In this document: positions 14,233 through 37,388 of the stretch, in pieces
Numbering within the stretch: the first letter of the stretch is position 1
Layout: the number at the start of each line of letters is the position of its first letter
From: Candidatus Ornithomonoglobus sp.
GTDB taxonomy: Bacteria; Bacillota; Clostridia; UBA1381
DNA length: 40,944 bases
Direction: 5' to 3'
NCBI GenBank assembly: GCA_051877395.1
Contig: JBJEIV010000326.1
Span: 1-40,944, forward strand
Notes under the pieces: generated by a model
The model's input: only the letters and a program-made list of their open reading frames with translations
The model's database searches: none
Told to the model about the DNA's origin: nothing
Program-made: the position numbers and the translations under genes

Positions 14233-17200
14233 CTATTCAAGAATACTCATAATATCGTCAGCCGACATCTTCATAATATCACCCTCACCGTTGAGCGCTA
14301 TATCGGATAACGCCTCCTTGCGCTGCTGCATCTCGATAATTCTCTCCTCAATAGTTTTCTCCGCAATCAGCTTATATATCTGAACGTTTCTTTTCTGTCC
14401 TATTCTGTATACACGATCCGATGCCTGGTTTTCCGCCGAGACATTCCACCACGGATCATAATGGATAACTATATCCGCCCCTGTAAGATTCAGTCCCGTT
14501 CCTCCCGCTTTAAGCGAAATAAGAAACAGCTTTGTATCATCCGAATTAAAGCTGTTAACCATTCTCAGTCTTTCCTTCGGCTTTGTTTTTCCCGTAAGAG
14601 TGTAATAGCTTATACCCCGCTCGCTCAGATTTTTTGCTATTATATCAAGCATTGATGTGAACTGCGAGAACAGCAGTATCTTATGTCCGGCATTCATGCA
14701 GCTTTCAATAAGCTCCATGCACATTTCAAGCTTCGCACTTGTACCGGTATAATTCTCATATACCAGCGAAGGATCACAGCATAGCTGACGCAGTCTTGTA
14801 AGCATTGCAAGTATCCTAAGCTTATCCTCTCCGCTGCCGCTTGAGGAGCCTAACAACTGTTTGGTTTCAATTACATGCGCCGAATATATTTTGCTCTGCT
14901 CCGGCTCCATTTTTGCCTTCATAACCGTTTCGGTCTTATCCGGAAGCTCGGTAAGAACCTCTTTTTTCAAACGTCTCAGAATAAAGGGCGAGGTCAGCTT
15001 CTGAAGCGCCCGCACCGTGTTGTTATCATGCCGTTTTACAATCGGGGTCTCATAGGTCTTTTTAAAATATGTGTACGCATGAAGATACCCCGGCATGATA
15101 AAATCAAATATACTCCAAAGCTCGGCAAGACTGTTTTCAACAGGCGTTCCCGTCAGCGCAAAGCGCACTTTTGATTTTACCCCCTTTACCGCCTTTGCCA
15201 TCTGCGTGCCGTGATTTTTTATGTACTGCGCCTCGTCAATAAAATGCAGATCAAAGCTCATGTTTTCATATTTCGATATATCACGAATCAAAGTCTGATA
15301 TGAGGTTATCACCACATCGTATTCGTCTATCATATTAATATATTCATTCCGCTCAGACACTGTGCCTGCTATAGTAACAGCGCTCAGCGACGGAGCAAAT
15401 TTGCGGATTTCGCTTTCCCAGTTCAGCGCAAGCGATGAGGGGCATACGACAAGAAACCTGCCGTGTCCTTTATTTGCCGCCTTCATATCAAGCATAAGCG
15501 AAATAGCTTGTAATGTTTTTCCCAGACCCATGTCATCCGCCAGTATTCCGCCGAAGCCGTATGCTGCAATCGTTTTCATCCATATAAAGCCGTATTTCTG
15601 ATATTCTCTCATAACCGGCTCAACCTCCGCCGGAAGCTCCCAGCTCTGAGCTTCGTCCATGAGAGAATTATACTGCTTTATAAGCCGTTTAAACTCACTG
15701 TTTCTTGCAATCCGCATTCCGTCAGCATCATTCTGTATACCGTTAAGATACAGCATTCTGTACTGCGGAAGCCTGATATTCTCCTTGAGAAGCGCCTTGT
15801 CGGTGATGTTGAGATTTTCCGCCAGCTCCGCAAGCTCCCGCAGTCCGTTATCGACCGTCATAAATGAACCGTCTTTTAACCTGTGGTACTTTTTTCCCAT
15901 ACGGTACGACTTCAGACCCTCAACAAGCTCCTCTATCGTATACCCTTGGGCGGTGACATCAAGCGCAAGCAGATTGCTTTCCGCCCTCACGCCCACAACC
16001 GGATGCGCCGGAGGTCTTACATTTATCCTCTTGAACTTCTCGCTTGCATAGATATCCATCAGCTCCGAAAGCCTGTCCAGACCTTCCGTCATAAACCGAT
16101 ATATCCTCTCATCACCCTCTATAACCAGCGGCTCTGTCAGATAATGTCTGTAGTCAAAATACTGCTGAACCGTCTGCTCGGCTGCCGTTTCTCCGCTGTA
16201 GTCGCAGAACGGGTTCTCGCTCTTTTTATAAAATGCGGCATAGCTTTTCCCGTCATACACAAATTCAAGACGCGCGGTTATCATATCCTTATCGGGCGCA
16301 TCCACATACAGTCTCGTTTCAAGCTCCGGCGGCGCGTACTGCTCAACCAGATCAAGTCCTTCTATGTCAATATACGGTATCAGCGGCTTTATCACCGCGT
16401 TGTAGAATGCGGGCATATCCGCGTTTGAAATACATATTTGTTTCTTGCTCCTGAACGCCTCGCACAATCCGCATACCATTCTTGTATACTTAACGTCGCA
16501 TATATAAAACTGTTTTTGTCTGTTACTGAAAAAATACGCATGTCTGCCGCTGCCGCAGTATACGAACTCTTTGTCAAGCTCTATATAATATCTTCCGCTG
16601 CTGTTTACCGCAATGTTAAGGTGAAGCTCCGGATTTTCAGATTTAATATAATACCGCTCACCCGAAAAGCTGATATACTCATCACAATACAATTCAAAAA
16701 AATCATCTATCCACCGTTTATTTAACTCATGAGTTCTTTTTTTGTCATAAAAGCTATACTCATACCCATAGCCGGAGGTCTTATATATATTCATCGCAAG
16801 ATTGACCACTCTGCGGCTCTTTTCATCAACCGCATCCCAGTCATGATGAAAGGTAAGCTCCTTTCCGTAGCGCTCGGTTGCGCGGTTTGCAAAATTTGAA
16901 TACAAATTGTCTATATTTTTTACAATATACGATCTTCCGTGCTCTTTTCCTATCTTAAGAATAAACGACAAATTATTATATTCGTCGTATTCCAGCTCCG
17001 GCACAATACGAACCCGTTCATCAGATACATTATTCAGGGCCTCACCGGCAGCATTGCTGCTGTAGTATTGCAATAGATACCCCACCTCACGAGAGCTGGT
17101 TCCCATCAGCTGATCCTTATTATCCCTCACCGCAAGCAGCGCCGCGGCCATATGCTTGCAGTAAGCGCCCCTGTCATAAGGACAGTTACAGTCAATTTCT

Positions 17201-17385
17201 GTAACGTTTCCGTCCGCGTCCAGACTGAGCGTAACCGTATAGGTTTTACTTCCCTTAACCTCAACGGCAAGGCTTCCTATAGCTGCCATTGCCTGTATAG
17301 AACGCACCCGCCCCTGCCTGTAATAGTTAAGTCCTCTATGATATATCGTACTGTTTATATAATTCCAGAAATTATTTATATGCAT
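14233..17385 (-). CDS. SWIM zinc-finger / SNF2-family helicase
   Basis: 1050 aa. N-terminal SWIM motif CNCPYDRGAYCKHMAAALL, then a long SNF2-associated middle region. SNF2 motifs are present: ILADDMGLGKT (I), DEAQYIKN (II), LTGTPVEN (III) and a helicase-C region (GGTGLNLTGADIVIHYDPWWN). Confidence 0.9.
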   Translation of the reverse strand: MHINNFWNYINSTIYHRGLNYYRQGRVRSIQAMAAIGSLAVEVKGSKTYTVTLSLDADGNVTEIDCNCPYDRGAYCKHMAAALLAVRDNKDQLMGTSSREVGYLLQYYSSNAAGEALNNVSDERVRIVPELEYDEYNNLSFILKIGKEHGRSYIVKNIDNLYSNFANRATERYGKELTFHHDWDAVDEKSRRVVNLAMNIYKTSGYGYEYSFYDKKRTHELNKRWIDDFFELYCDEYISFSGERYYIKSENPELHLNIAVNSSGRYYIELDKEFVYCGSGRHAYFFSNRQKQFYICDVKYTRMVCGLCEAFRSKKQICISNADMPAFYNAVIKPLIPYIDIEGLDLVEQYAPPELETRLYVDAPDKDMITARLEFVYDGKSYAAFYKKSENPFCDYSGETAAEQTVQQYFDYRHYLTEPLVIEGDERIYRFMTEGLDRLSELMDIYASEKFKRINVRPPAHPVVGVRAESNLLALDVTAQGYTIEELVEGLKSYRMGKKYHRLKDGSFMTVDNGLRELAELAENLNITDKALLKENIRLPQYRMLYLNGIQNDADGMRIARNSEFKRLIKQYNSLMDEAQSWELPAEVEPVMREYQKYGFIWMKTIAAYGFGGILADDMGLGKTLQAISLMLDMKAANKGHGRFLVVCPSSLALNWESEIRKFAPSLSAVTIAGTVSERNEYINMIDEYDVVITSYQTLIRDISKYENMSFDLHFIDEAQYIKNHGTQMAKAVKGVKSKVRFALTGTPVENSLAELWSIFDFIMPGYLHAYTYFKKTYETPIVKRHDNNTVRALQKLTSPFILRRLKKEVLTELPDKTETVMKAKMEPEQSKIYSAHVIETKQLLGSSSGSGEDKLRILAMLTRLRQLCCDPSLVYENYTGTSAKLEMCMELIESCMNAGHKILLFSQFTSMLDIIAKNLSERGISYYTLTGKTKPKERLRMVNSFNSDDTKLFLISLKAGGTGLNLTGADIVIHYDPWWNVSAENQASDRVYRIGQKRNVQIYKLIAEKTIEERIIEMQQRKEALSDIALNGEGDIMKMSADDIMSILE

Positions 17386-18545: not shown

Positions 18546-18890
18546 ATGGCTACTGATATTATACGAAAAAATTATGACAGCGTAAATTACTGGCATACGG
18601 TAGGTGCAGCTGTGCGTACAAAAAGCGGCAAAATATATTTGGATGCTAATTGCGACTCAGTAAGTCATGGTTCGTGCGCAGAATTTATTGCTATAGGTGC
18701 GGCTGTGACGGCAGGAGAGCGTGAATTTGATACTATTGTTGCGGTGCTTGGAGGCGAGCATAAGAAAATTCTTCCGCCCTGTGGGAACTGCCGGCAGATG
18801 ATGTATTGCTATGATAAAAATATCAATGTAATTGTAAATGATACTACAAGGGAAAACATACTGGATTTGTCGAAATATCCATGTGATTAA
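18546..18890 (+). CDS. Cytidine-deaminase-fold zinc enzyme (small homotetrameric CDA / blasticidin-S-deaminase-like)
   Basis: Zinc and catalytic motifs SCAEFIAIGAAV (C-A-E) and PCGNCRQMM (P-C-x2-C). About 114 aa counted from the ATG at 18546. Confidence 0.75.
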   Translation: MATDIIRKNYDSVNYWHTVGAAVRTKSGKIYLDANCDSVSHGSCAEFIAIGAAVTAGEREFDTIVAVLGGEHKKILPPCGNCRQMMYCYDKNINVIVNDTTRENILDLSKYPCD

Positions 18891-26068: not shown

Positions 26069-26186
26069 TATAATTATTTTATAACACTTTATTCTGCATT
26101 ATAGTATATATTATGCCGGAAATCAACTTTTTTCTTCAAAAAAAGATACACCGCATTTAAGCAGTATATCCTTTTAAAAATCATTC

Positions 26187-26306
26187 TATATAGCATGCAT
26201 TAAGTACTTCGTATTTTAATAGTACTTAATGCATGCGCTGAATGCCTCTTTTCACTAAGTTTTCTTCATTGCATTGACTATAGAAAACTTAGTGAAAAGC
26301 ATATAT
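26187..26306 (+). repeat. Double-hairpin intergenic repeat, copy B
   Basis: Same orientation and architecture as 9103-9222. Perfect 15-bp stem (26193-26207 / 26222-26236) and perfect 17-bp stem (26248-26264 / 26283-26299). It lies between convergent genes. Confidence 0.85.
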
Positions 26307-26319
26307 TTCCGCTTTATAT

Positions 26320-27921
26320 TTATCTTTCGTGTCTTGCGTACTTCGGCAGCAGCAGCGGTGATACATCGCCTGTATCTATGCCCGCAGCCTGAAGCTCTCC
26401 GGCATAATCCTCAATATGCTTTAACGTGAGCGCGCCAAGCTCGACTTCCTTTGACCTTGCAGCCGCAGCCTTGCCCGCGTTGCGTCCGAATACTATAATA
26501 TCAAGGAGCGAGTTGCCCATAAGACGGTTGCGTCCGTGGATTCCGCCCACCGCCTCGCCGGCTACGAGAAGATTGTCTATAGCCTTTGTGAAGCCGTCGC
26601 CGCCGATTTCAAGACCGCCGTTCTGATAGTGAAGCGTCGGATATACGAGAATAGGAACCTTTCTCATGTCTATATCATAGTTGAGATACATTCTCAGCAT
26701 TGCCGGTATTCTCTTTTCTATTGTTCCCTCGCCGCCGATTCTCTCAATCATAGGTGTGTCAAGCCATACGCCTGAGCCAAGCGGTGTTGTAACGCCCTTG
26801 CCGCGGTCTGTGCATTCTCTTATGATAGACGCGGCCGAAACATCTCTTGTTTCAAGCGGATGCATGAACGCCTCACCGTCAACATTGACAAGCATTGCGC
26901 CGAGTGAGCGTACCTTTTCCGTTACAAGCGCGCCGAATATCTGCGAGGGATATGCAACGCCTGTCGGATGATACTGTATCGTGTCCTGATAGAGCAGCGG
27001 AGCGCCCGCTCTGTAGCCAAGCACAAGTCCGTCCGCCGTCGCGCCGTAATGGTTTGAGGTCGGGAAGTTCTGATAGTGCATTCTTCCCGCGCCGCCTGTC
27101 GCAATTATTACCGTCTTTGCGCGCGCAACCATGTAGTCGCCCGTTTCCATGTTCAGAAGAACCGCGCCCGCAACGCGACCGTTTTCGTCCTTTATAAGCT
27201 CAACCGCCGATGTGAACTCAATTACAGGTATCTTTCTGTTTATTACCTCGTCACGGAGCGTTCTCATGATTTCCGCGCCCGAATAGTCCTTGCACGCGTG
27301 CATTCTCTTTCTTGAGGTTCCGCCGCCGTGAGTTGTTACCATGTCGCCATCATCATTCTTGTCAAACATTACGCCAAGCTCGTTGAGCCACTTTATAGCA
27401 TCCGGCGCCTCCATTACAAGTCTCTTTAAAAGCTCAGGTCTTGCGGCAAAGTGTCCGCCGCCGAACGCGTCAAGATAATGCTGTACCGGTGAATCATTCG
27501 GCTTGTCCGCCGCCTGAATACCTCCCTCTGCCATCATTGTGTTCGCGTCGCCTATACGGAGCTTTGTCACTATCATAACATCAGCGCCCGCCTCGTTTGC
27601 CTCGATAGCCGCCGACGCGCCCGCGCCGCCGCCGCCGATTATGAGAACGTCCGTGTCATAATCTATCTTATTAAGATCAATATCAACGCCCAACAGACGG
27701 CTGTTTGAATGGAGAAGGTTTGCAAGCTCCTGCGGAGCCTTCTCTCCCTTGTTCGGGCCTATCTTTATTTCATCAAAAGCCTCTGTTCTGTAGTCAGGAT
27801 GATATGCCTTTAAAAGCTCGTCCTTTTCCTCCGCAGTCATTCTGCGCGGCTCTGTGCCCATACGCGCGTCACGCGTAGCCTCGACCTTTTTGATGGATTC
27901 CATCATTTCCGGTGTAAACAT
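26320..27921 (-). CDS. FAD-dependent flavoprotein of the succinate dehydrogenase / fumarate reductase / AprA / NadB superfamily, with an N-terminal extension of about 85 aa
   Basis: 533 aa. The dinucleotide fold DVLIIGGGGAGASAA begins only near residue 91. It has an MAEGGIQAA motif with no His at the covalent-FAD position. The C-terminal region has GEAVGGIHGRNRLMGNSLLD. Confidence 0.8.
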   Translation of the reverse strand: MFTPEMMESIKKVEATRDARMGTEPRRMTAEEKDELLKAYHPDYRTEAFDEIKIGPNKGEKAPQELANLLHSNSRLLGVDIDLNKIDYDTDVLIIGGGGAGASAAIEANEAGADVMIVTKLRIGDANTMMAEGGIQAADKPNDSPVQHYLDAFGGGHFAARPELLKRLVMEAPDAIKWLNELGVMFDKNDDGDMVTTHGGGTSRKRMHACKDYSGAEIMRTLRDEVINRKIPVIEFTSAVELIKDENGRVAGAVLLNMETGDYMVARAKTVIIATGGAGRMHYQNFPTSNHYGATADGLVLGYRAGAPLLYQDTIQYHPTGVAYPSQIFGALVTEKVRSLGAMLVNVDGEAFMHPLETRDVSAASIIRECTDRGKGVTTPLGSGVWLDTPMIERIGGEGTIEKRIPAMLRMYLNYDIDMRKVPILVYPTLHYQNGGLEIGGDGFTKAIDNLLVAGEAVGGIHGRNRLMGNSLLDIIVFGRNAGKAAAARSKEVELGALTLKHIEDYAGELQAAGIDTGDVSPLLLPKYARHER

Positions 27922-27937
27922 TTATATCATCCCTCCT

Positions 27938-28612
27938 TTATTTCTCGATTTCTCTATTGTTATACAGTTCCTGCATTTCTGTTATCGGCTTCTGCATGAT
28001 CTGCTCTATAAGACCGTCATACTCGCCGCGGTTGATCTCAGCAACGCGCTCTGTAAGATGCTTTGATTCGGGCGCTATGTACTTTCCTGTAAGACGTCTT
28101 GCGAGAAGTCCTACCATCGGATGCGAGATCCCCGCCGGACAGCGCACCGAGCAGCAACCGCAGCCCACGCAGTCAAACGACAGCTCCGCGCACTTCTCAA
28201 AGTCGCCGCGCTGCGCGTACGCTATGTACTGCATAACACTCAGTCCCTGTGTACATGCCTTTGTACAGGCGTTGCAGCCTATACAGCTGTATATTTCGGG
28301 ATAAAGCTCCATCATAACCTGCTGATTCGGCTTTAAGTCCTCTATGTCATATGTTCTCTTGTCTGTCGGGAAGAACGGAATGCTTGCAACATACATTCCC
28401 TCCTGCACCTGTGTCTGACACGCAAGACAGGTTTTAAGCTCATTCTGTCCCTTTATTCTGTATATGGTAGCGCACGCGCCGCAGAAGCCGTGACGGCAGC
28501 CGCAGCCGCGCTTTAAGGTGTATCCGGCATACTCCATGGCAGTCATAATTGTCAGGCTGTCCGGCACACTGTAGCGCTTACCGAAAAAATATACGTTAAC
28601 CATGTTTTCCAT
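27938..28612 (-). CDS. SdhB/FrdB-like iron-sulfur subunit ([2Fe-2S] plus two cubane-type cluster motifs)
   Basis: 224 aa. Motifs: CRHGFCGAC...C (C-x4-C-x2-C-x14-C), CIGCNACTKAC and CVGCGCCSVRCP. Confidence 0.75.
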   Translation of the reverse strand: MENMVNVYFFGKRYSVPDSLTIMTAMEYAGYTLKRGCGCRHGFCGACATIYRIKGQNELKTCLACQTQVQEGMYVASIPFFPTDKRTYDIEDLKPNQQVMMELYPEIYSCIGCNACTKACTQGLSVMQYIAYAQRGDFEKCAELSFDCVGCGCCSVRCPAGISHPMVGLLARRLTGKYIAPESKHLTERVAEINRGEYDGLIEQIMQKPITEMQELYNNREIEK

Positions 28613-28627
28613 GTTGATTCCTCCTAC

Positions 28628-29482
28628 TTAATACTCGTCCGGCAGCTCGTCTATCTGGTCAAAGCGGAATACCGGTCCGTCCTTGCAGACATACTTTGAG
28701 CCGATATTGCAGCGGCCGCATTTGCCTATTCCGCACTTCATACGCAGCTCCAGCGTTGTGTATACCTGCTCGTCTGTAAAGCCTAAATCCTTCAGCCCCT
28801 GCAATACAAATTTAATCATTATCGGAGGTCCGCACACGAGAGCAACTCTGTCCGTATCAAAGCCGATTTCGCTAAGATATGCAGGAACAAAGCCCACATG
28901 ACCGTCCCAGCCCTCCTGCTCGCGATCGATCGTGAGGTACACATTAACATCCTCTGCCTTGCTCCATACCTCCCGGATTTCCTCAAGCTTTACAAGGTCG
29001 TCTGCCGAGCGTGAGCCGTAGAGTATATCCACCTTACCGTAATCGGCGCGGTTGTCAAGCACATAATTTATTACCGAACGGAGCGGCGCAAGTCCGATAC
29101 CTCCCGCGATAAACAGAAGATTTTTCCCTTTCAGTTTATCCTCAACCGGGAAGTGGTTGCCGTAGGGCCCTCTTACGGTTATCTCGTCGCCCTCCTGCAA
29201 ATCGTGGAGATAGCTTGTAAGGTCACCGCACTTCTTTATACTAAATTCCTGAAATTCCTTGTTTGTCGGTGACGAGGTTATCGAGAACATTCCCTCGCTT
29301 ATGCCCGGAACACAGAGCATCGCGCACTGTCCCGGCATATGCTCAAACAGCTTGCCGCCCTCGGGAGCGGTTACGCAGAAGGTCTTTACATCCGGTGTTT
29401 CCCGGGTGATCTTTGTTATAACGCCTACCTTCGGAATAAGGGTATCGAGCGCATAATTCTTATGGCAATTACATTCACTCAT
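28628..29482 (-). CDS. FlxA-like FAD/NAD(P)-binding oxidoreductase with C-terminal [2Fe-2S] (AsrB / sulfhydrogenase-gamma type)
   Basis: Ferredoxin-reductase-type fold (FSITSSP, LLFIAGGIGLAPL) with C-terminal CGIGKCGRCNIGSKYVCKDGPVF. The ATG at 29482 (MSECN) follows AGGAGG and sits 1 nt after the upstream stop. Confidence 0.8.
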   Translation of the reverse strand: MSECNCHKNYALDTLIPKVGVITKITRETPDVKTFCVTAPEGGKLFEHMPGQCAMLCVPGISEGMFSITSSPTNKEFQEFSIKKCGDLTSYLHDLQEGDEITVRGPYGNHFPVEDKLKGKNLLFIAGGIGLAPLRSVINYVLDNRADYGKVDILYGSRSADDLVKLEEIREVWSKAEDVNVYLTIDREQEGWDGHVGFVPAYLSEIGFDTDRVALVCGPPIMIKFVLQGLKDLGFTDEQVYTTLELRMKCGIGKCGRCNIGSKYVCKDGPVFRFDQIDELPDEY

Positions 29483-29483
29483 A

Positions 29484-30512
29484 TCATTTACCCTCCTTTT
29501 CAAACGCCTTTATAACCTTAACTATGTTAAGCGATGACGGACACTTATCAACACATCGTCCGCAGCCCGTGCAGGAGAACATTCCGTCGTTATTTGTCGG
29601 ATAATATACAAGCTTGTGCATAAATCTCTGTCTGAAGCGCTGCATCTGGCTTGTTCTGTTGTTGCCGTGCGCCATCATTGTGAAGTCGGAATACATACAT
29701 GAATCCCAGCAGCGGTAACGCTTTACTCCGTGACCCGTGTCATAGTCCTTTATATCATAGCACTGACAGGTCGGACATACAAAGGTACAGGTTCCGCACG
29801 CAAGACAAGGCTTGTATAGATCCTCCCATATGGGTGAGTTAAAGCGTTCAAGCTTATCATCTCTGCCCCAGCCCTCAAGCGAGAGGCGCATATTCGGGAT
29901 TTTTTCGACTATGCTCTTTATTTCAGCCTTTTTATCATTAACAGCTGCATCGTCCGCTTCCTCAAGAAGCTCTTTGACCTGCTCCGTAAGTCTTTCGCCC
30001 TTTTCGGTTACCGGCTTCCAGAACAGCTCATCACCGACAAGCCATGTAACGACATCGGCTCCCTCCGGCTCGGAGCAGTCCGTTCCGAACACCTTGCAGA
30101 AGCAGCTCAGCTCCGGCTCATTGCAGGCAAGCGCAACTATTGTGCCGTGCTCTCTGCGTGCCGCGTAAAAGGTATCTACAGGCTCGGCTAAGAATACCCT
30201 GTCAAGTACCTCCACACCGTGAACGTCGCAGCCCCTCATGCCGAATACCACAAAGCTCTCGTTTATAAGCTCCTCCGGCTCTATTCTGATTTTCTTTCCG
30301 TCTCTTATACAGGTATAAAGCGTTTCGCTCTGCGGGAAAAACGCGTCCTTTGCCGATTTAACGGTTTTAAGCGTTTGGATATCGACCTCCGCGCCCTCTG
30401 TCCACGGCGCAAAGTTTGTCTGCCCCGCTCTTTTTATCGGAAGATACAGCGCATTTTCCCCGGCGATCGCCTTATACAGCTGCGGGAGGCTTGCTTTTGC
30501 TGTTTTGTACAT
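29484..30512 (-). CDS. FlxB-like 4Fe-4S protein (AsrA / sulfhydrogenase-beta type)
   Basis: 342 aa with the motifs CLACGTCTFVCPTCQCYD and CTGCGRCVDKCP. Confidence 0.75.
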   Translation of the reverse strand: MYKTAKASLPQLYKAIAGENALYLPIKRAGQTNFAPWTEGAEVDIQTLKTVKSAKDAFFPQSETLYTCIRDGKKIRIEPEELINESFVVFGMRGCDVHGVEVLDRVFLAEPVDTFYAARREHGTIVALACNEPELSCFCKVFGTDCSEPEGADVVTWLVGDELFWKPVTEKGERLTEQVKELLEEADDAAVNDKKAEIKSIVEKIPNMRLSLEGWGRDDKLERFNSPIWEDLYKPCLACGTCTFVCPTCQCYDIKDYDTGHGVKRYRCWDSCMYSDFTMMAHGNNRTSQMQRFRQRFMHKLVYYPTNNDGMFSCTGCGRCVDKCPSSLNIVKVIKAFEKEGK

Positions 30513-30527
30513 AACTGCGGCACCTCC

Positions 30528-31490
30528 TCATATTGAACCCGGCTCCGCGTCCTCGAACGTGAAGCTCGTAAGCGGTGTTCTTTCCTCATCTCCGGCACCC
30601 GCCGTGTAATCGCCGTAGAGGGTATTTATATCCTTAATGAACTTGCGGTTAAACAGGTGAAGCGGAATGCCCTGCGGACATACTCTGCTGCACTCGCCGC
30701 AGTCGGTACAGCGTCCCGCAACATGAAACGCGCGTATGATGTGGAACATCTTTTCCTCGAAGGAATCAACATTTGCCTTCTGCGCGCTGTCAAACTTTGT
30801 GCTGTCAAATACGCACTTGCGGCATGAGCATGCCGGACAGACGTTCCTGCACGCGTTGCAGCGTATGCACTTTGAAAGCTCGCCTTGGAAGAAGGCGAAT
30901 TTCTCCTCCGGTGACATTGCCTCAATTCTTTCAACCTCGGCAAAGCGGTCCGCGTCAACGGTATCGGCAGAATCGCCGATAAGCTCGTCATATATAACGT
31001 GCTCCTTGCCCTTGCATACATGGCAGCGTTCAAGCATAGCGTCCTTATACGCGCAGGTTTTCTCACCCGTGAGCGTTTCCATTGTGAGAGTGTCGCAGGC
31101 ATCGCTAAGCTCCGCGCCCTTAACATCAAGGACATTCTTAATTCCGAGAGAATTAATTTTGTCTATGCTCAGCTTGCCCTTGCAGCCGACGCCTATAATA
31201 TACGCCTTGTCCCTGTCAACTCTGTGCTCCTTTATAAGCTGCTTAAAGCTGTAGCTGTCGCACGGCTTTAAGAAAACAAGCGTTTTCCCCTCAAGCTTTG
31301 AAGCCTCTATCATATATTTGCTGAGGTTAGCTCCGCAGAAGCCGTTGTATACAAGCTCCGAAAGGCTCTCCTCATCATTAAAATATGCCGGCTCGGGATT
31401 GTACGGCAGGTCGCCCCTTCTCCAGCCGAGAACGCGCGCAACCGTGCCGTCGGATAAAAGCTCCTTTGCGCGGTTTATCAGTTCCTGCAT
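30528..31490 (-). CDS. FlxC-like 4Fe-4S dicluster protein
   Basis: 320 aa with the motifs CIRCNACRNVCPACSC and CTDCGECSRVCP. It overlaps the upstream gene end by 13 nt. Confidence 0.7.
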   Translation of the reverse strand: MQELINRAKELLSDGTVARVLGWRRGDLPYNPEPAYFNDEESLSELVYNGFCGANLSKYMIEASKLEGKTLVFLKPCDSYSFKQLIKEHRVDRDKAYIIGVGCKGKLSIDKINSLGIKNVLDVKGAELSDACDTLTMETLTGEKTCAYKDAMLERCHVCKGKEHVIYDELIGDSADTVDADRFAEVERIEAMSPEEKFAFFQGELSKCIRCNACRNVCPACSCRKCVFDSTKFDSAQKANVDSFEEKMFHIIRAFHVAGRCTDCGECSRVCPQGIPLHLFNRKFIKDINTLYGDYTAGAGDEERTPLTSFTFEDAEPGSI

Positions 31491-31921
31491 CTCAGATCCC
31501 CCAATCTTACGTTTTTGCCGAGTGAGCGGATTTTCTCAACGAACTCGTTCATCGTCTGCGAGAACTTTACGCCCTCCGCAGCCGAAACCCATTCAACTCT
31601 TGTTCTTCCGTGCTCAACGCCTATAAAGTCAAGCATTGAGAACAGAAGCGTCATTCTTCTTCTCGCATAATAGTTGCCTGTGCTGTAGTGACAGTCGCCG
31701 GGATGGCAGCCGCACATTATCACGCCGTCAGCGCCCTTTTCAAAGGCTCTTAAAATAAACATCGGATTTACACGGCATGAGCATGGTACGCGGATTATCT
31801 TTACGTCAGCCGGATAGCCAAGACGGCTGCTGCCCGCCAGATCCGCTCCGGCATAGCTGCACCAGTTACAGCAGAATGCAACAATTTTAGGTCTGAATTC
31901 CTCTTTTTCATTTATCGGCAT
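31478..31921 (-). CDS. mvhD: MvhD/FlxD-type (methyl-viologen-reducing hydrogenase delta subunit) protein
   Basis: IVAFCCNWCSYAGADLAG...IIRVPCSCRVNP...GADGVIMCGCHPGDCHY is the MvhD signature. The ATG at 31921 (MPINEK) follows GGAGGTGG and overlaps the hdrA stop. Confidence 0.85.
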   Translation of the reverse strand: MPINEKEEFRPKIVAFCCNWCSYAGADLAGSSRLGYPADVKIIRVPCSCRVNPMFILRAFEKGADGVIMCGCHPGDCHYSTGNYYARRRMTLLFSMLDFIGVEHGRTRVEWVSAAEGVKFSQTMNEFVEKIRSLGKNVRLGDLRCRN

Positions 31922-33900
31922 ATCGCGTCCACCTCCGCTGTAAGCTGTCTGTTTGAGAAGCCCTGAAGATCCATCGCGCCCGACGGACATGTAACGGTAC
32001 AAGCGCCGCAGCCCTGGCAGAGCGCGTTGTTTACGACCGCAACACGGCGTGTTTCGCGTATTCCGTGGTCATTTACCTGCTTCTCCTCATATGAAATCGC
32101 GCCGTAAGGACAAACGTTTGCGCACTGTGAACAGCCGTTGCACAGCAGCTCGTCAGACTTTGCCGTACATGGGTTAGTCATAAGCTTATCCTTTGCAAGC
32201 AGTCCTATCGCCTTGACCGCCGCAGCGCCTGCCTGTGATACCGTTTCCGGAATATCCTTAGGTCCCTGACATACGCCCGAAAGAAATACTCCGGCTGTAG
32301 GCGATTCTACAGGGCGAAGCTTCGGATGCGCTTCTGTCAGGAAGTTGTTTGTATCAATGCTTGCAGTAAGCATTGTCGCTATTTTTCTTACCGATGATGA
32401 AGGCTCAATGGCTGCCGCAAGGACTACCATATCCGCGCTTATCATCAGCTGCTTGTTATCTATTAAGTCAGAGCCGTATACCGTAAGGCTTCCGTCCGGC
32501 TCCGGGCAGACCTTGCCGACCTGTCCCTTTATATAATTTACTCCGTATTCCTCAACGGCGCGTCTGTAGAACTCGTCAAAGTTCTTGCCCGGAGTTCTGA
32601 CGTCTATATAGAATACCGTTACGTTTACATCCGGGTACTTATCTCTTATGAGCATCGCGTGCTTTGCGGTATACATACAGCATATCTTTGAGCAGTAGCT
32701 CTTGCCGCGGTCATCCGAGCAGCGGCTTCCGACACACTGAACAAATACGATATTCTTAGGCGCCTTGCCGTCGGAAAGTCTTTCAAGATGTCCCTTTGTA
32801 GGACCTGCGGCGTTCATGATACGCTCCAGCTCAAGCGAGGTTATTACGTCCTCGCTCTGCGAATACGCGTATTCGTCATATTTGTCAAGCTTTATAACGT
32901 CAAAGCCTGTCGCAACCACGATCGCGCCGTACTTCTCCGTGATTATCTCGTCCTTCTGAGTGTAATCTATCGCGCCCGCCGCGCATACCGTTGAGCAAAG
33001 TCCGCACTTTCCTGTCTTAAACTTTATACACGCCTCGCGGTCGATTACCGGAACATTCGGGATAGCCTGCGCGAACGGCGTATAAATCGCGGTTCTGTTG
33101 TTAAGTCCGCGGTTGAACTCGCTCGGTGTTTTCTTTGACGGACACTTTTCCTGACAGGCGCCGCAGCCTGTGCACTTATCCATGTCAACGCTTCTTGCCT
33201 TCTTGCGTATATCAACCGTGAAATCACCCACAAAGCCGGTTACCTTTTCAACCTCGCTGTAGGTGTATATATTGATATTTTCATGCGCCGCTGCCTCAAC
33301 CATTTTCGGCGTAAGAATACAAGCCGAGCAGTCAAGCGTCGGGAAGGTCTTGTCAAGCTGCGACATCCTGCCGCCTATTGACGGTGTTTTCTCGACAATA
33401 TCAACCGGATAACCCGCGTCCGCTATGTCAAGCGCGGTCTGTATTCCGGCAATACCGCCGCCTATTACAAGCGCTCTCTTTGTAACTCTGCTCTCGCCCG
33501 GCTTTAACGGCGCGTTAAGGTTAACCTTTGCAACCGCCGCCCTCATAAGTATTACTGCCTTCTTTGTCGCTTCCTCAATATCCTTATGTATCCATGAGCA
33601 GTGCTCGCGTATGTTTGCGATCTCGACCATGTACGGATTTATACCGGCGCGCTCTGCGCAGGTTCTAAAAGTCGCCTCGTGCATTCTCGGTGAGCATGAG
33701 CAGACTACTATTCCCGTAAGTCCCTTTTCTTCGATTGCCTGAGCGATCTTCGCCTGTCCCGCCTCGGAGCACATATACTGATAGTCCTCGGCATGAACAA
33801 CTCCCGGCTCCATAAGAGCCATTTCAGCTACCTTTTTAACGTCTACAGTCGCCGCGATATTACTTCCGCAGTGGCAGACAAAAACTCCTATTCTCTGCAC
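31912..33900 (-). CDS. hdrA: HdrA-like heterodisulfide reductase subunit A (FAD, multiple Fe-S clusters)
   Basis: 662 aa. N-terminal IGVFVCHCGSNI, FAD fold ALVIGGGIAGIQTALD, ferredoxin inserts CTGCGACQEKCP, and C-terminal CNGCSQCANVCP plus CQGCGACTVTCP. GTG start 8 nt after AGGAGG. Confidence 0.9.
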   Translation of the reverse strand: MQRIGVFVCHCGSNIAATVDVKKVAEMALMEPGVVHAEDYQYMCSEAGQAKIAQAIEEKGLTGIVVCSCSPRMHEATFRTCAERAGINPYMVEIANIREHCSWIHKDIEEATKKAVILMRAAVAKVNLNAPLKPGESRVTKRALVIGGGIAGIQTALDIADAGYPVDIVEKTPSIGGRMSQLDKTFPTLDCSACILTPKMVEAAAHENINIYTYSEVEKVTGFVGDFTVDIRKKARSVDMDKCTGCGACQEKCPSKKTPSEFNRGLNNRTAIYTPFAQAIPNVPVIDREACIKFKTGKCGLCSTVCAAGAIDYTQKDEIITEKYGAIVVATGFDVIKLDKYDEYAYSQSEDVITSLELERIMNAAGPTKGHLERLSDGKAPKNIVFVQCVGSRCSDDRGKSYCSKICCMYTAKHAMLIRDKYPDVNVTVFYIDVRTPGKNFDEFYRRAVEEYGVNYIKGQVGKVCPEPDGSLTVYGSDLIDNKQLMISADMVVLAAAIEPSSSVRKIATMLTASIDTNNFLTEAHPKLRPVESPTAGVFLSGVCQGPKDIPETVSQAGAAAVKAIGLLAKDKLMTNPCTAKSDELLCNGCSQCANVCPYGAISYEEKQVNDHGIRETRRVAVVNNALCQGCGACTVTCPSGAMDLQGFSNRQLTAEVDAICR

Positions 33901-33977
33901 TTAATTCACCTCCTACGCTATTTGTTCGCAAGCGAACATAGCTATTAAATGTTTTTCAAACATTTAATTCACCTCCT
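33898..33977. repeat. Palindromic mini-insertion flanked by 14-bp direct repeats in the hdrC-hdrA junction
   Basis: TTAATTCACCTCCT occurs at 33901-33914 and 33964-33977. Between the copies are two hairpins: GCTATTTGTTCGC/GCGAACATAGC (33917-33942) and ATTAAATGTTT/AAACATTTAAT (33944-33968). Confidence 0.7.
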
Positions 33978-34358
33978 GTAGCGTCTGAACGCGCTTACCA
34001 GAAGCTGCTGCGGAATATCCTCGTCCAGAAGCTCTGGTATCTCATCGGGCGTTAAATAATCTCCGCCCTGCTGTCTTATTACTATCTGTCTTGCCGCGTC
34101 TATAAGCTTGCCTGGCTTTACGTCGCGCGGACAGCGCTGTACACACGCAAAGCAGGAAAGACAATGCCACAGCGATTTTGAATTTACAAGCGCGTCAATA
34201 TCGTTATTCAGCACATACGACACAAACTGATGCGGCTTTATATCCATCGCGTCAAAGCTGGGGCATGTTGCCGAGCACTTGCCGCACTTCATGCACTTGT
34301 ACGGATTTACTCCGCTTATTTCGCGGATCTGCTCCGCCGTTAAATCCTTTTTATTCAT
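33969..34358 (-). CDS. hdrC: HdrC-like 4Fe-4S subunit
   Basis: 129 aa with CMKCGKCSATCP and CLSCFACVQRCP. It overlaps the hdrB end by 8 nt. Confidence 0.8.
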   Translation of the reverse strand: MNKKDLTAEQIREISGVNPYKCMKCGKCSATCPSFDAMDIKPHQFVSYVLNNDIDALVNSKSLWHCLSCFACVQRCPRDVKPGKLIDAARQIVIRQQGGDYLTPDEIPELLDEDIPQQLLVSAFRRYRR

Positions 34359-35148
34359 TATCCGCAGCCTCCTTTACTCCAAGCGCCTCAGCAAGAAGCT
34401 CCGTAAAATAGTATACGGGAAGCTTTGCCCCTGTGCTCTTGTTAAGGTTATACATACAGAGCGGGCAGGCGGTTATGAGCAGCTCCGCGCCGAAGCCCTT
34501 CGCGCTGTCGGTAATCTGGGCGCAAAGCTCCTTTGCGCGTTCCCTTTCCTTTAACGATATGTAACCGCCGCAGCACTCGTTGCGGTACGGATAGACAACA
34601 GGCTCCGCGCCTATAGCTCTTATAAAATCCTCTATTATTGTCGGATTTTCCGGATCGTCAAATGCCATGAGCTTTCCCGGTCTTAACAGCAGACAGCCGT
34701 AATACGCGCCTATCTTTCTGCCTTTAAGAGGATTTACCACCCTTTTCTTCAGCTCGTCAAAGCCTACGCGGTCACGAAGCACCTCCAGGAAATGAAGCAC
34801 ATTCGTTTCACCCTCATAAGGCTTATCAAGCTGCATATAATTGTTGGCGCGCGTCCTTATGTCCTCGACATTCTTCATGTCGTCATTTACACGCTTTAAA
34901 ACGTGATGACACGCCGAGCACAGCGTCACAAGCTCCTGTCCCCTATCCCTCGCGGCGGCAAGATTGCGCACGGACGCGAGCTTTGTCGCTATTTCGTCAT
35001 TTCCGAGAGGATATACTCCCCCGCAGCACTGCCATTCCTCTATTTCCTCTAATCCGAAGCCCAGCGCCCGAGCGGAAGCGCGGGCATACTTATCCAAAGC
35101 CTGCGCCTTATTCTTTAAGGTACATCCGGGATAATAACTGTATGTCAT
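34351..35148 (-). CDS. hdrB: HdrB-like subunit (two CCG cysteine-rich domains)
   Basis: 265 aa. YYPGCTL start, CCGG at residues about 41-44 and CCGGY near residue 194, plus TLCSACH and TACPLC motifs typical of CCG domains. Confidence 0.85.
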   Translation of the reverse strand: MTYSYYPGCTLKNKAQALDKYARASARALGFGLEEIEEWQCCGGVYPLGNDEIATKLASVRNLAAARDRGQELVTLCSACHHVLKRVNDDMKNVEDIRTRANNYMQLDKPYEGETNVLHFLEVLRDRVGFDELKKRVVNPLKGRKIGAYYGCLLLRPGKLMAFDDPENPTIIEDFIRAIGAEPVVYPYRNECCGGYISLKERERAKELCAQITDSAKGFGAELLITACPLCMYNLNKSTGAKLPVYYFTELLAEALGVKEAADNE

Positions 35149-35174
35149 GTTATTACTGCTGCTCCTTTCTGAAA

Positions 35175-36122
35175 TTATAATTCTATCTTTTCAATTACTC
35201 CGCGAAGCACATCCGCGCTGTGACGAAGCTTTCCAATCTCCTCATCGGTCAGTCTTACGGGAACCTTGCACCGTACCCCCTGAGGTCCTATAAGCGTCGG
35301 AACGCTGATACATACATCACTTATTCCATACTCACCGTGAAGCATTGATGTCACAGTAGAAATCGAATCGTAAGCCGAAAGCAGAAGCGAGCACAGACGG
35401 CATACCGAAACAGATACCGCATAGAAGGTCGCGCCCTTATTCTCGATAATTCTTGCTCCCGACTCATGTATATAGGCTGTCATCTTGTCCTCGTCAAGCG
35501 GCTCAAATTTCTTTCCGTGCTGCTCCATCATCTCCGCATACTCGCTTATTGAGCAGCCCGAAATCTTTGCCACCGACCACGGCACAAAGGAGGAATCGCC
35601 ATGCTCGCCGAAAACATACGCGTGAATGTTTCTCTGAGCTATCTGATAGTGCTCCGAAAGACCGTATCTCAGTCTTGCGGTATCAAGCAGCGTTCCCGAG
35701 CCCATGATCTGATTTTCCGGCAGACCCGATATTTTCGTAAAAACATAGGTCATAATGTCTACCGGATTGCTTACTATAATGTATAACGCGTTCGGTGCAG
35801 CCTTTACAATGTCCGGTGTTATACTCTTCAAAATATCAACATTTGTCTGTGTAAGCTCTATTCTTGTCTGTCCCGGCTTACGCGCAACTCCCGATGTTAT
35901 AATAACAATATCGGAATCCTTCGCATCCTCATAATCACCCGCGATAACCGATATAGGATCGCGGAAGGAAGCTCCCTGCACAATATCCATTGCCTCACCG
36001 ACAACCTTCTGCTTATTGATGTCAATCATTACGATTTCCGATGCAATATCCTCGTTTGAAAGAGTGTAGGCGATTGTTGAACCCACGCTTCCCGCGCCAA
36101 TGATGGTAATTTTACTACTCAT
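35175..36122 (-). CDS. ldh: L-lactate dehydrogenase (NAD-dependent)
   Basis: 315 aa with the motifs IIGAGSVGSTIAYTL, ITSGVARKPGQTR and FGEHGDSSFVPWS. Only 26 nt, including an AAAGGAG RBS, separate it from hdrB. Confidence 0.93.
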   Translation of the reverse strand: MSSKITIIGAGSVGSTIAYTLSNEDIASEIVMIDINKQKVVGEAMDIVQGASFRDPISVIAGDYEDAKDSDIVIITSGVARKPGQTRIELTQTNVDILKSITPDIVKAAPNALYIIVSNPVDIMTYVFTKISGLPENQIMGSGTLLDTARLRYGLSEHYQIAQRNIHAYVFGEHGDSSFVPWSVAKISGCSISEYAEMMEQHGKKFEPLDEDKMTAYIHESGARIIENKGATFYAVSVSVCRLCSLLLSAYDSISTVTSMLHGEYGISDVCISVPTLIGPQGVRCKVPVRLTDEEIGKLRHSADVLRGVIEKIEL

Positions 36123-36192: not shown

Positions 36193-36221
36193 ATAATACC
36201 ACATTGACAACAATTTCACAA
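36193..36221 (-). promoter_or_regulatory. Putative ldh-operon promoter overlapping a Rex-like operator
   Basis: On the minus strand: TTGTGA (36216-36221), a 17-nt spacer, then TATTAT (36193-36198). The 18-bp TTGACAACAATTTCACAA (36204-36221) matches the Rex consensus TTGTGAAnnnnTTCACAA at 12 of 14 specified positions. Confidence 0.45.
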
Positions 36222-36408: not shown

Positions 36409-36759
36409 TCAAATCGGCGATCCTCTTGAAACGCGTCTGAAAATTCTCATCATTCGTAAAAGCTCCTTTTGATTTTCTTCGCTCATTGAAGCCGCATTAT
36501 TCATAATTCTGGAAAACAGGGTAGGATTTCCTTTCTTGTCCGGGTCGAAGCTAAAAGAGAATAATTCAGACAGCGAAACACCGAGCGCGTCTGCAATTCC
36601 GGCTACGGTATCAACCGTAGGATTTTTTGCGGCGCGTTCAATCTGCCCCAGATGAGCCGCGCTTATTCCCGCCTTGAAGGCAAGCTCCTCCTGGCTCATT
36701 CCGAGAGAGTTTCGTATTTTTCTAATTTCTTTCCCCAATTTTACACCAACAGTTTCCAT
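36409..36759 (-). CDS. XRE-family helix-turn-helix transcriptional regulator
   Basis: HTH_3 signature IRKIRNSLGMSQEELAFKAGISAAHLGQIERAAKNPTVDTVAGIADALGVSLSELF. The start is probably METVGV at 36759. Confidence 0.8.
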   Translation of the reverse strand: METVGVKLGKEIRKIRNSLGMSQEELAFKAGISAAHLGQIERAAKNPTVDTVAGIADALGVSLSELFSFSFDPDKKGNPTLFSRIMNNAASMSEENQKELLRMMRIFRRVSRGSPI

Positions 36760-36868
36760 GCTGACCATTAAATCCTTTCATAAAAGCACTTTGAATATTC
36801 TTTTTCTTATTTTTATTATCTCATTTGACAGCAACAATATCAAATTACTTTAGGCATTAATATTTTTT

Positions 36869-36944: not shown

Positions 36945-37388
36945 ATGAGCTATATTCAGAAAAACTTAAAGCGGGATGAGGAAATCGTTATGGAGGGAAA
37001 GCTGCACGGCGCGATGCTTATACCTCATGTTCTTTTGATGTTTCTGGGAGTCGGTTTTTTTACCATTATTCCCGCCGTAATTAAAATGAAAACCACTGAA
37101 ATCACAATTACAAACAAAAGAGTGGTCGGAAAAATCGGACTGATAAAAACGACCGAGCTTGACACTCCGCTTAATAAAGTTAATAATGTAACCGTCAACA
37201 GCGGTTTCTGGGGGAAGATATTCGGCTACGGAACTATTAAAATAACCTCTTCCTCAGATGATTATGAATTTTCCGGAATAAAAAATGCCGCCGGCTTCCG
37301 TTCTGCGCTTATGAACCAGATAGATCAGTTTGACGAGGACAGAATTAAAAAACAGGCTCAGGAAATGGCAAAAGCCATGAAATCATAA
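36945..37388 (+). CDS. Bacterial PH-domain (bPH_2 / membrane-flanked) protein
   Basis: 147 aa. One hydrophobic hairpin (MLIPHVLLMFLGVGFFTIIPAVI) is followed by ITITNKRVVGKIGLI...GTIKITS, typical of bPH_2. An AAGGAGGA RBS is present. Confidence 0.7.
   Translation: MSYIQKNLKRDEEIVMEGKLHGAMLIPHVLLMFLGVGFFTIIPAVIKMKTTEITITNKRVVGKIGLIKTTELDTPLNKVNNVTVNSGFWGKIFGYGTIKITSSSDDYEFSGIKNAAGFRSALMNQIDQFDEDRIKKQAQEMAKAMKS

Follow-up and report, generated by a model that had tools for sequence, protein, structure and literature searches.

The question raised by the locus described here is what a complete Flx-Hdr module does when it is encoded in one operon with an NAD-dependent dehydrogenase and with a flavoprotein pair of the fumarate reductase/succinate dehydrogenase (Frd/Sdh) type, and to which acceptor its electrons would finally be passed. 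The operon lies on the minus strand at positions 26320 to 36122 of contig JBJEIV010000326.1 of Candidatus Ornithomonoglobus sp. (assembly GCA_051877395.1), and the whole stretch of 40,944 nucleotides that was analysed is called the window throughout. An earlier reading made from the letters alone (the sequence-only reading) had seen here ten minus-strand genes in the order ldh, hdrB, hdrC, hdrA, flxD (mvhD), flxC, flxB, flxA, an SdhB-like iron-sulfur (Fe-S) protein and a flavoprotein. The list of open reading frames and the Pfam and NCBIfam scans confirmed ten densely packed genes with the same coordinates and domain content, and the labels held for hdrBCA, flxDCBA, the Fe-S protein and the flavoprotein, but not for the "NAD-type ldh" at the head of the operon. 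We propose, with a probability of roughly 0.6, that the operon encodes a malate dehydrogenase (MDH) together with a soluble fumarate reductase that is connected to a Flx-Hdr module oxidising NADH, that it serves the reductive C4 branch in a fermenting Clostridium, and that ferredoxin is reduced at the same time.

The nature of the acceptor can be approached through the last two genes. The final gene (26320 to 27921) encodes a 533-aa frdA-like flavoprotein with an FAD_binding_2 core, whose best NCBIfam match is TfrA (333 bits, with an equivalog cut-off of 718), followed by Frd/Sdh and then NadB, and whose best relatives in the PDB are SdhA (222 bits) and FrdA. Residues H318, T334, E335, R359, H431 and R466 align with H242, T254, E255, R286, H354 and R399 of E. 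coli SdhA, and these six catalytic residues (the HPTG His, the Thr-Glu hinge, the proton-donor Arg, the second His and the second Arg) are invariant in 81 close homologues. Also invariant in these 81 proteins is Asn127, which replaces the His that binds FAD covalently (His45 in E. coli SdhA). Non-covalent FAD is a hallmark of fumarate reduction, as opposed to succinate oxidation, which is then inefficient, as has been established for Frd and Sdh of E. coli. Another conserved feature of the flavoprotein is an N-terminal extension of about 90 aa. In the clade that shares it, members with identities as low as 41% keep Asn127 as well as five of the six catalytic residues, and have either Thr or Ser at the position of T334. 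No match to the C-terminal helical domain Succ_DH_flav_C (PF02910) was found in the protein, which ends about 60 residues past its FAD domain. An AlphaFold2 model built from a shallow alignment of 34 sequences reached a mean predicted local distance difference test score (pLDDT) of only 58.9, which does not allow a fold search or an interpretation of the N-terminal extension.

The adjacent gene (27938 to 28612) encodes a 224-aa frdB-like Fe-S subunit that resembles the N-terminal part of TfrB, with an SdhB/TfrB-type 2Fe-2S motif (C39, C44, C47, C62/65) and two full CxxCxxCxxxC motifs. That the two proteins belong together is illustrated by a natural fusion, P0124 (727 aa), in which an FrdB-like part, 38% identical to the FrdB of the window, is N-terminal to an FrdA-like flavoprotein. 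No membrane-anchor genes for the Frd pair are present. Most likely, the last two genes encode a soluble, quinone-independent fumarate reductase whose FrdA would hold its FAD non-covalently.

Three other identities were considered for this pair. AprAB, and with it APS or another sulfur oxyanion as the acceptor, is effectively excluded: the only related PDB match of the flavoprotein is the PAPS reductase alpha subunit (44 bits, residues 89 to 310), and no Apr family is among the NCBIfam matches listed. NadB (L-aspartate oxidase), a monomeric enzyme that has no Fe-S partner, was rejected on its score (TIGR00551, 251 bits versus a cut-off of 452.75) and on the Fe-S subunit that lies next to the flavoprotein and is fused to it in P0124. 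The pair is not a member of TfrAB either, as the TfrA score of 333 bits is far from 718 and what corresponds to TfrB is divided among three proteins, making the pair Tfr-like in architecture only. The sequence-only reading had left the acceptor open between a fumarate-like compound, a disulfide and a sulfur oxyanion, and had recommended an inspection of the substrate-binding residues; all of the dicarboxylate-binding residues of Frd/Sdh turned out to be kept, with negligible similarity to AprA. Together with the similarity to TfrA and Frd and with the fumarate hydratase and permease genes found beside the operon in relatives (see below), these active-site residues point to fumarate. Of the "Frd/Apr-like" reductase thought to be hard-wired to a complete Flx-Hdr module, the Frd-like pair and the linkage stand, and the Apr-like character does not.

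The first gene of the operon (35175 to 36122) encodes an NAD-dependent dehydrogenase of the lactate dehydrogenase (LDH) family (Ldh_1_N/C). It has the catalytic Arg109, Asp168/Arg171 and His195 (motifs RKPGQTR, LDTAR and GEHGD), but when aligned with its PDB matches, its substrate loop reads GVARKPGQTR, where classical LDHs have AQKPGETR or RQKPGQSR. Arg81 thus occupies the Gln102 position, and Arg is invariant there in all 36 operon-linked copies. Replacement of Gln102 by Arg is the classic switch from a lactate to a malate dehydrogenase. As this Arg is present in the window and in every linked copy, the protein is of the MDH type rather than a classical LDH, and it is predicted to be an Arg102-type NADH-dependent malate dehydrogenase, converting oxaloacetate and NADH to malate. 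There is a precedent in Clostridium cellulolyticum, in which two paralogues were both annotated as LDH at first; the Gln86 paralogue is the LDH, and gene disruption showed Ccel_0137, which carries Arg81, to be the primary MDH of the organism (PMC3268733). The clostridial Arg-type MDHs (Ccel_0137 and Cthe_0345) share with the window protein the LDH family, Arg81 and the initial LDH annotation; Ccel_0137, however, is linked to malic enzyme in the malate shunt, while the window protein is linked to fumarate reductase. The residue at position 102 and the C. cellulolyticum case speak against the "classical NAD-dependent LDH" of the sequence-only reading, and score-based annotation pipelines are likely to mislabel this gene as L-lactate dehydrogenase.

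The gene slot upstream of hdrB is less constant than the rest of the operon. Among 47 related loci, 33 carry an Ldh-family gene of 64-76% identity in this slot and 14 do not. In locus L052 the slot (1406 to 2395) is taken by a divergent paralogue of the Ldh_1 family, which is 37% identical and likewise carries Arg at position 102, and in locus L039 (1433 to 2545) it holds an Ldh_2-family (malate/L-lactate/sulfolactate) dehydrogenase. These look like cases in which the MDH function was taken over by a paralogous or a non-orthologous gene, respectively.

Between the dehydrogenase and the Frd pair, all seven Flx-Hdr subunits (FlxA, FlxB, FlxC, FlxD, HdrA, HdrB and HdrC) are present, and the Pfam and NCBIfam scans and the Cys patterns reveal the expected cofactor motifs in each of them. 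HdrB (34351 to 35148) has two complete CCG motifs, C9, C41, C42, C77, C80 and C152, C192, C193, C228, C231, spaced CX31CCX34CXXC and CX39CCX34CXXC. HdrC (33969 to 34358) is ferredoxin-like, with two CxxCxxCxxxC motifs for 2x[4Fe-4S]. HdrA (31912 to 33900) is an FAD and multi-[4Fe-4S] protein that matches the HdrA2 model with 792 bits over residues 3 to 660, and it is the candidate bifurcating flavoprotein. FlxD/MvhD (31478 to 31921) carries an FlpD domain (183 bits); its likely ATG at 31921, which gives a 10-nt overlap with the end of hdrA, corresponds to the 147-aa gene call of its counterpart in the close relative L081. FlxC (30528 to 31490) is an Fe-S protein with two [4Fe-4S] motifs and additional Cys residues, and FlxB (29484 to 30512) is an Fe-S protein with a Fer4_22 domain that resembles AsrA and ShyB. 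FlxA (28628 to 29482), the NAD(P)H entry module, combines FAD_binding_6, NAD_binding_1 and a DHODB-type 2Fe-2S domain (DHODB_Fe-S_bind); its L081 counterpart is a 284-aa gene call, whereas the mechanical open reading frame in the window reaches a TTG at 29503.

The NCBIfam matches of HdrB are SdhE (the MFR anchor, which is the best match), HdrB and the C-terminal half of TfrB. The TfrB model as a whole is tiled by three proteins of the operon, FrdB (model positions 19 to 165), HdrC (123 to 219) and HdrB (265 to 486), which means that methanogens already have an Frd module joined to proteins with CCG clusters. In the type-E enzymes, too, SdhAB is partnered by CCG proteins.

A scan of species-representative genomes yielded at least 595 loci of this kind, of which the best 80 (78-90% identity) were taken for comparison; their hosts include Lachnospiraceae, Oscillospiraceae, Acutalibacteraceae, Blautia, Dorea, Mediterraneibacter and others. 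The nine-gene order hdrB-hdrC-hdrA-flxD-flxC-flxB-flxA-frdB-frdA is colinear in each of the 53 loci whose upstream sequence is long enough, so the linkage of flx-hdr to frdAB, for which the sequence-only reading had recommended a genome survey, is a conserved one. Protein identity across families of Clostridia is 85-90%, with means of 87-89% (87.5% for HdrA). The operon has a GC content of 48-53%, compared with 37-45% in its immediate flanks. The high identity across families and this contrast in GC suggest either horizontal spread or an unusually strong constraint.

Downstream of frdA, on the same strand, genes for the alpha and beta parts of a class I fumarate hydratase follow directly in 65-66 of the 74 loci with downstream sequence; the alpha protein is above the NCBIfam cut-off of a fumarate hydratase model and the beta protein above that of an Fe-S-containing hydro-lyase model. 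A gene for an Asp-Al_Ex (AspT/YidE) permease is additionally present in 42 of the 74. We take AspT/YidE to be the family of SucE, the succinate exporter of Corynebacterium. A typical cluster in relatives is therefore mdh - hdrBCA - flxDCBA - frdBA - fumAB - permease, and by this gene content (mdh, frdBA, fumAB and the permease) the operon is an oxaloacetate-to-succinate branch with a candidate for export.

A more distant clade of the flavoprotein (47% identity) is found in sulfur-oxidising Gammaproteobacteria, including tubeworm symbionts. In three gammaproteobacterial loci (L084, 9354 to 12877; L085, 9366 to 12891; L086, 9350 to 12890), a NuoF-like gene (Complex1_51K, NADH_4Fe-4S) comes after frdB-frdA. 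No Flx-Hdr genes were found beside these frdBA pairs, and no Hdr or Flx domain matches in L085 and L086. In L084, a canonical mdh with the loop PRKPGMSR lies upstream of frdBA, and the neighbours of the pair comprise two canonical mdh genes together with genes for a citrate synthase and for oxoacid:ferredoxin oxidoreductase. It is possible that the gammaproteobacterial FrdBA and the NuoF-like protein would form a three-subunit NADH:fumarate reductase. As FrdBA is joined to different NADH-oxidising front ends in the two groups, it looks like a portable terminal module.

How does the operon compare with known systems? Ramos et al. are said to have proposed in 2015 that FlxABCD-HdrABC of Desulfovibrio vulgaris is an NADH-dependent, flavin-based bifurcating complex that works in ethanol metabolism with the DsrC disulfide as its acceptor. 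The same seven subunit types are present in the window in an inverted order (hdrBCA-flxDCBA), but a dedicated FrdAB is added and no DsrC is found in the conserved neighbourhood. The thiol:fumarate reductase TfrAB of Methanothermobacter, reportedly described by Heim et al. in 1998, is said to use CoM-SH and CoB-SH as donors, whereas the complex in the window would use NADH via HdrA. TfrB unites the SdhB-like Fe-S part and the CCG domains that the window splits over FrdB, HdrC and HdrB, and the flavoprotein of the window differs from TfrA by its extra 90-aa N-terminal extension and by the lack of the C-terminal region of TfrA. In the MetFV-HdrABC-MvhD methylene-tetrahydrofolate reductase of Moorella thermoacetica, NADH is the donor and co-reduction of ferredoxin has been proposed (reaction 21 in PMC5861303; Mock et al. 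2014). There, too, HdrABC-MvhD is attached to a terminal reductase that does not act on thiols; this reductase is MetFV and there are no FlxABC subunits, whereas the window has FrdAB and FlxABC.

The closest precedent is the "succinate operon" of Pseudoclostridium (Hungateiclostridium) thermosuccinogenes, which combines seven Flx-Hdr genes and two for fumarate reductase with genes for a fumarate hydratase and a putative transporter (PMC7282089). For this organism, coupling of NADH oxidation to the reduction of both fumarate and ferredoxin has been proposed and transcripts show co-regulation (Koendjbiharie & van Kranenburg, BMC Microbiol 2020, PMC7282089), and the coupling proposal also appears, as cited there, in a 2019 preprint by Koendjbiharie & van Kranenburg. 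In both operons the Flx-Hdr genes are followed by the fumarate reductase genes, and the relatives in gut Clostridia add mdh. Compared by published gene content, the operon of P. thermosuccinogenes starts with fumarate hydratase, while that of the window starts with the Arg102 MDH, and neither a fumarase nor a transporter gene lies next to the operon.

A second line of proposals comes from autotrophs. In tubeworm symbionts (Ca. Endoriftia) and in Thioflavicoccus mobilis, tfrAB occurs with flxABCD-hdrABC in a reductive tricarboxylic acid cycle (rTCA) cluster, and a bifurcating complex has been proposed (Rubin-Blum 2019, PMC6315080; Mitchell 2024, PMC11636981), a proposal restated in a 2026 survey (PMC13147460). 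The flavoprotein of this pair belongs to the same subfamily as that of the window (47% identity, N-terminal extension, Asn at the covalent-His site), but these organisms are autotrophs (rTCA, with OGOR and ACL), whereas the setting of the window is fermentative. The published linkage of the tubeworm type is to flx-hdr, whereas the three gammaproteobacterial loci examined here show the NuoF-like gene after frdBA. In view of these reports (PMC7282089, PMC6315080, PMC11636981, PMC13147460), the "undescribed" supercomplex of the sequence-only reading is not new as an idea; the linkage of Frd to Flx-Hdr has already been proposed and is still hypothetical biochemically.

Physiological data are available for Blautia luti, which makes and excretes succinate; methyl viologen:fumarate reductase activities were about 500-990 mU/mg, the NADH-MDH activity was about 1070 mU/mg in glucose-grown cells, and "frdAB" was highly transcribed (PMC12773636). 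In a mismatch-tolerant scan of the related loci, the primers used for B. luti frdAB mapped onto the frdB and frdA orthologues of the window family; exact matches of these primers in the related loci were not found. Only "lactate dehydrogenase" and decarboxylating malic enzyme genes are listed in that study, with no non-decarboxylating MDH (PMC12773636, Table S2), and one of the two annotated B. luti LDHs may be an Arg102 MDH like that of the window.

The route that these parts support best is the following. MDH would reduce oxaloacetate to malate with NADH, and fumarate hydratase would convert malate to fumarate. We infer that the Flx, Hdr and Frd proteins form one complex with NADH as its donor: NADH would be oxidised at FlxA, and its electrons would pass via FlxB, FlxC and FlxD (MvhD) to the FAD of HdrA, where they would be bifurcated. 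The downhill branch would run through HdrC, HdrB and FrdB to the flavin of FrdA and on to fumarate (E0' of about +30 mV), and the uphill branch from the HdrA FAD to ferredoxin (Fd), for an overall balance of 2 NADH + fumarate + 2 Fd(ox) -> 2 NAD+ + succinate + 2 Fd(red). Rnf or a hydrogenase could in turn draw on the reduced ferredoxin. As NADH:fumarate reduction yields about 58 kJ/mol (delta-G of about -58 kJ/mol, PMC13147460), co-reduction of ferredoxin is energetically affordable. We give about even odds to the more specific proposal that: the complex is a true bifurcating NADH:fumarate/ferredoxin oxidoreductase; the CCG clusters of HdrB are a relay to Frd and not a disulfide site; and this complex, rather than a quinol:fumarate reductase, is the chief route by which hundreds of species of quinone-free gut Clostridia (Blautia, Dorea, Mediterraneibacter, Oscillospiraceae and others) form succinate and conserve energy.

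Several observations weigh against our proposal. No fumarate hydratase or AspT/YidE-family permease gene was found anywhere in the 41-kb window, and at this locus, as in L081, a terminator stands where the fumarase and permease genes are adjacent in relatives, so the pathway is incomplete here. The two genes presumably lie in another part of this organism's genome, the lineage of the window and L081 having either lost or relocated them from this place. The first gene passes the L-LDH equivalog cut-off of NCBIfam (343.9 versus 303.55) and narrowly misses the MDH subfamily model PRK06223 (280.7 versus a cut-off of 283), and LDH and MDH paralogues can overlap in specificity (PMC3268733). The gammaproteobacterial pairing of FrdBA with a NuoF-like protein implies that NADH:fumarate reduction does not intrinsically need Hdr, and as HdrB keeps both CCG motifs, normally a disulfide-reducing site, a thiol/disulfide intermediate is conceivable. 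Finally, neither a purification, nor a bifurcation assay, nor other biochemical work on complex formation, NADH dependence or ferredoxin reduction was found in the literature searched.

The rival explanation that survives best is that of a non-bifurcating NADH:fumarate oxidoreductase, in which Flx-Hdr would be nothing but a wire between NADH and FrdAB, with ferredoxin left unreduced and the energy dissipated, comparable to the soluble Hydrogenobacter enzyme that reduces fumarate with NADH (EC 1.3.1.6). There are known examples of soluble fumarate reductases that depend on NADH (PMC13147460), the B. luti study models a simple NADH-driven fumarate reductase (PMC12773636), and the gammaproteobacterial orthologues of FrdBA (47% identity) manage with a single NuoF-like module and without Hdr. 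We nevertheless regard this as rather unlikely, since a full HdrA with all of its cluster motifs and MvhD have been retained under strong purifying selection (87-89% mean identity, 53 of 53 loci colinear), which would be costly for a wire. To our knowledge, the characterised HdrA-containing complexes all bifurcate or confurcate.

Less probable still is a reaction in two thiol-mediated steps, in which Flx-Hdr reduces a disulfide (DsrC-like or a pair of low-molecular-weight thiols) at HdrB, and FrdAB with the CCG module reoxidises the thiols with fumarate. The intact CCG motifs of HdrB would suit such a scheme, as would the fact that the closest curated family of FrdA is TfrA, whose partner TfrB has CCG domains, and a DsrC-like carrier was named as one option by Mitchell et al. 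(PMC11636981). However, a gene for a thiol carrier (DsrC, TusE or similar) is not conserved in the 13-gene neighbourhood, and as FrdB has no CCG domains, both half-reactions would take place at one HdrB site, which makes a diffusible intermediate superfluous.

The operon might also run in reverse, as a succinate-oxidising, confurcating system (succinate and reduced ferredoxin to NADH) for growth on succinate, with the first gene product oxidising malate. Hdr-type complexes are often reversible, and MDH and fumarase are reversible as well. Yet this direction is very improbable given the replacement of the covalent-FAD His by Asn (all 81 close homologues and the distant N-extended ones), the excretion of succinate by hosts such as B. 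luti (PMC12773636), and the permease gene of the SucE family co-located in relatives. Scarcely credible, despite the L-LDH cut-off passed by the first gene (343.9 versus 303.55) and an LDH as its top PDB match, is the sequence-only reading itself, in which an NAD-LDH feeds electrons from lactate to Flx-Hdr and an Apr/Sdh-like reductase acts on a sulfur oxyanion, a disulfide or the like: it is contradicted by Arg at position 102 in 36 of 36 copies, by scores of 222 bits to SdhA but 44 bits to the alpha subunit of PAPS reductase, by the conservation of every dicarboxylate-binding residue, by the fumarate hydratase and AspT/YidE-family permease genes of relatives, and by the 14 of 47 loci that lack the 64-76%-identical Ldh-family gene, while the nine-gene core is missing in none.

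The gene spacing and the signals around the operon bear on its expression. With ATG starts as in L081, the junctions in gene order measure +26, -8, +68, -10, -13, +15, +1, +15 and +16 nt, which agrees with the range of -13 to +26 nt given earlier, the 68-nt spacer excepted. A promoter-like site (TTGTGA-17-TATTAT, with TG) is present on the minus strand at 36193 to 36221, with the first start codon 99 nt downstream. It overlaps a Rex-like palindrome, TTGTGAAATTGTTGTCAA, at 36221 to 36204, in which 12 of 14 consensus positions are matched. Of 52 regions upstream of the operon (the window and 51 related loci), 27 contain a box with at least 12 of 14 matches, as against 1.8% of shuffled controls, a contrast that is somewhat inflated as the shuffles keep mononucleotide composition only. 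This enrichment provides comparative support for control by Rex; the operon is probably repressed by Rex, and its expression would hence respond to the NADH/NAD+ ratio. Within the operon, no convincing minus-strand terminator was found, the 14 terminator-like sites being at background level (9.7 +/- 3.3 in shuffles). At its end, the terminator region (26138 to 26236, minus strand) consists of a 16-bp perfect hairpin (26236 to 26193) followed by a hairpin with a U7 tail (26170 to 26138), and it folds with a minimum free energy of -45.2 kcal/mol (z = -8.35). The single promoter region with a Rex-like box and the absence of internal terminators had both been recognised in the sequence-only reading, and by the terminator, promoter and Rex-box scans its single transcript looks like one Rex-controlled unit.

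The 68-nt hdrC-hdrA spacer (33901 to 33968) had been suspected to contain a secondary insertion. Alignment with L081 (flavoprotein 96% identical to that of the window) and L001 (90%) bears this out, as a 63-nt insertion in the spacer is missing from both. The direct repeat AGGAGGTGAATTAA stands on both sides of the insertion, with a hairpin within, and through this repeat the ribosome-binding site of hdrA (its Shine-Dalgarno region) is duplicated and so preserved. There is no second copy of the 63-nt element in the window, and as a single-copy element it cannot be called a mobile repeat; slipped duplication and a tiny element are the candidates for its origin.

On either side of the operon, the window and L081 differ. 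Downstream of frdA (26069 to 26319), past the terminator, the neighbour is an unrelated gene, for aldose epimerase in the window and for nitroreductase in L081. Between the operon promoter and the PHP/hisS genes, the window has an XRE-family helix-turn-helix regulator (36409 to 36768, minus strand) and a bPH_2-domain protein (36945 to 37388, plus strand); both are missing at the equivalent place in L081, a small indel difference between the two genomes. The XRE regulator was left out of the system because it is not conserved beside the operon in L081.

Farther away, the window contains genes related to phage defence. A PARIS-type anti-phage pair (20168 to 22583, plus strand) consists of an AriA-like AAA ATPase (PADLOC AriA, 3e-33) and an AriB/DUF4435 protein (2e-33), and it lies within an AT-rich island at about 17.6-23 kb (26-37% GC, compared with about 45-50% in the surroundings). 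An open reading frame at 18838 to 19425 matches the candidate defence family PDC-S07. A large SNF2/SWIM helicase with an SNF2_assoc domain (14233 to 17385, minus strand) gave strong matches to the DpdE and ZorD defence models, which probably represent generic SNF2 similarity.

If the proposed route is true, fermentative gut Clostridia would be able to conserve energy from fumarate reduction without the help of quinones: of the roughly 58 kJ/mol that are otherwise lost, a part would be kept in the form of reduced ferredoxin, for use by Rnf or in H2 formation. The Arg102 "LDH" paralogues and the linkage to Flx-Hdr represent testable corrections to the plain fumarate reductase model of B. luti. 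As the cluster is very widespread (at least 595 loci), unusually conserved and probably controlled by Rex, it could strongly set the succinate output and the redox balance of the gut.

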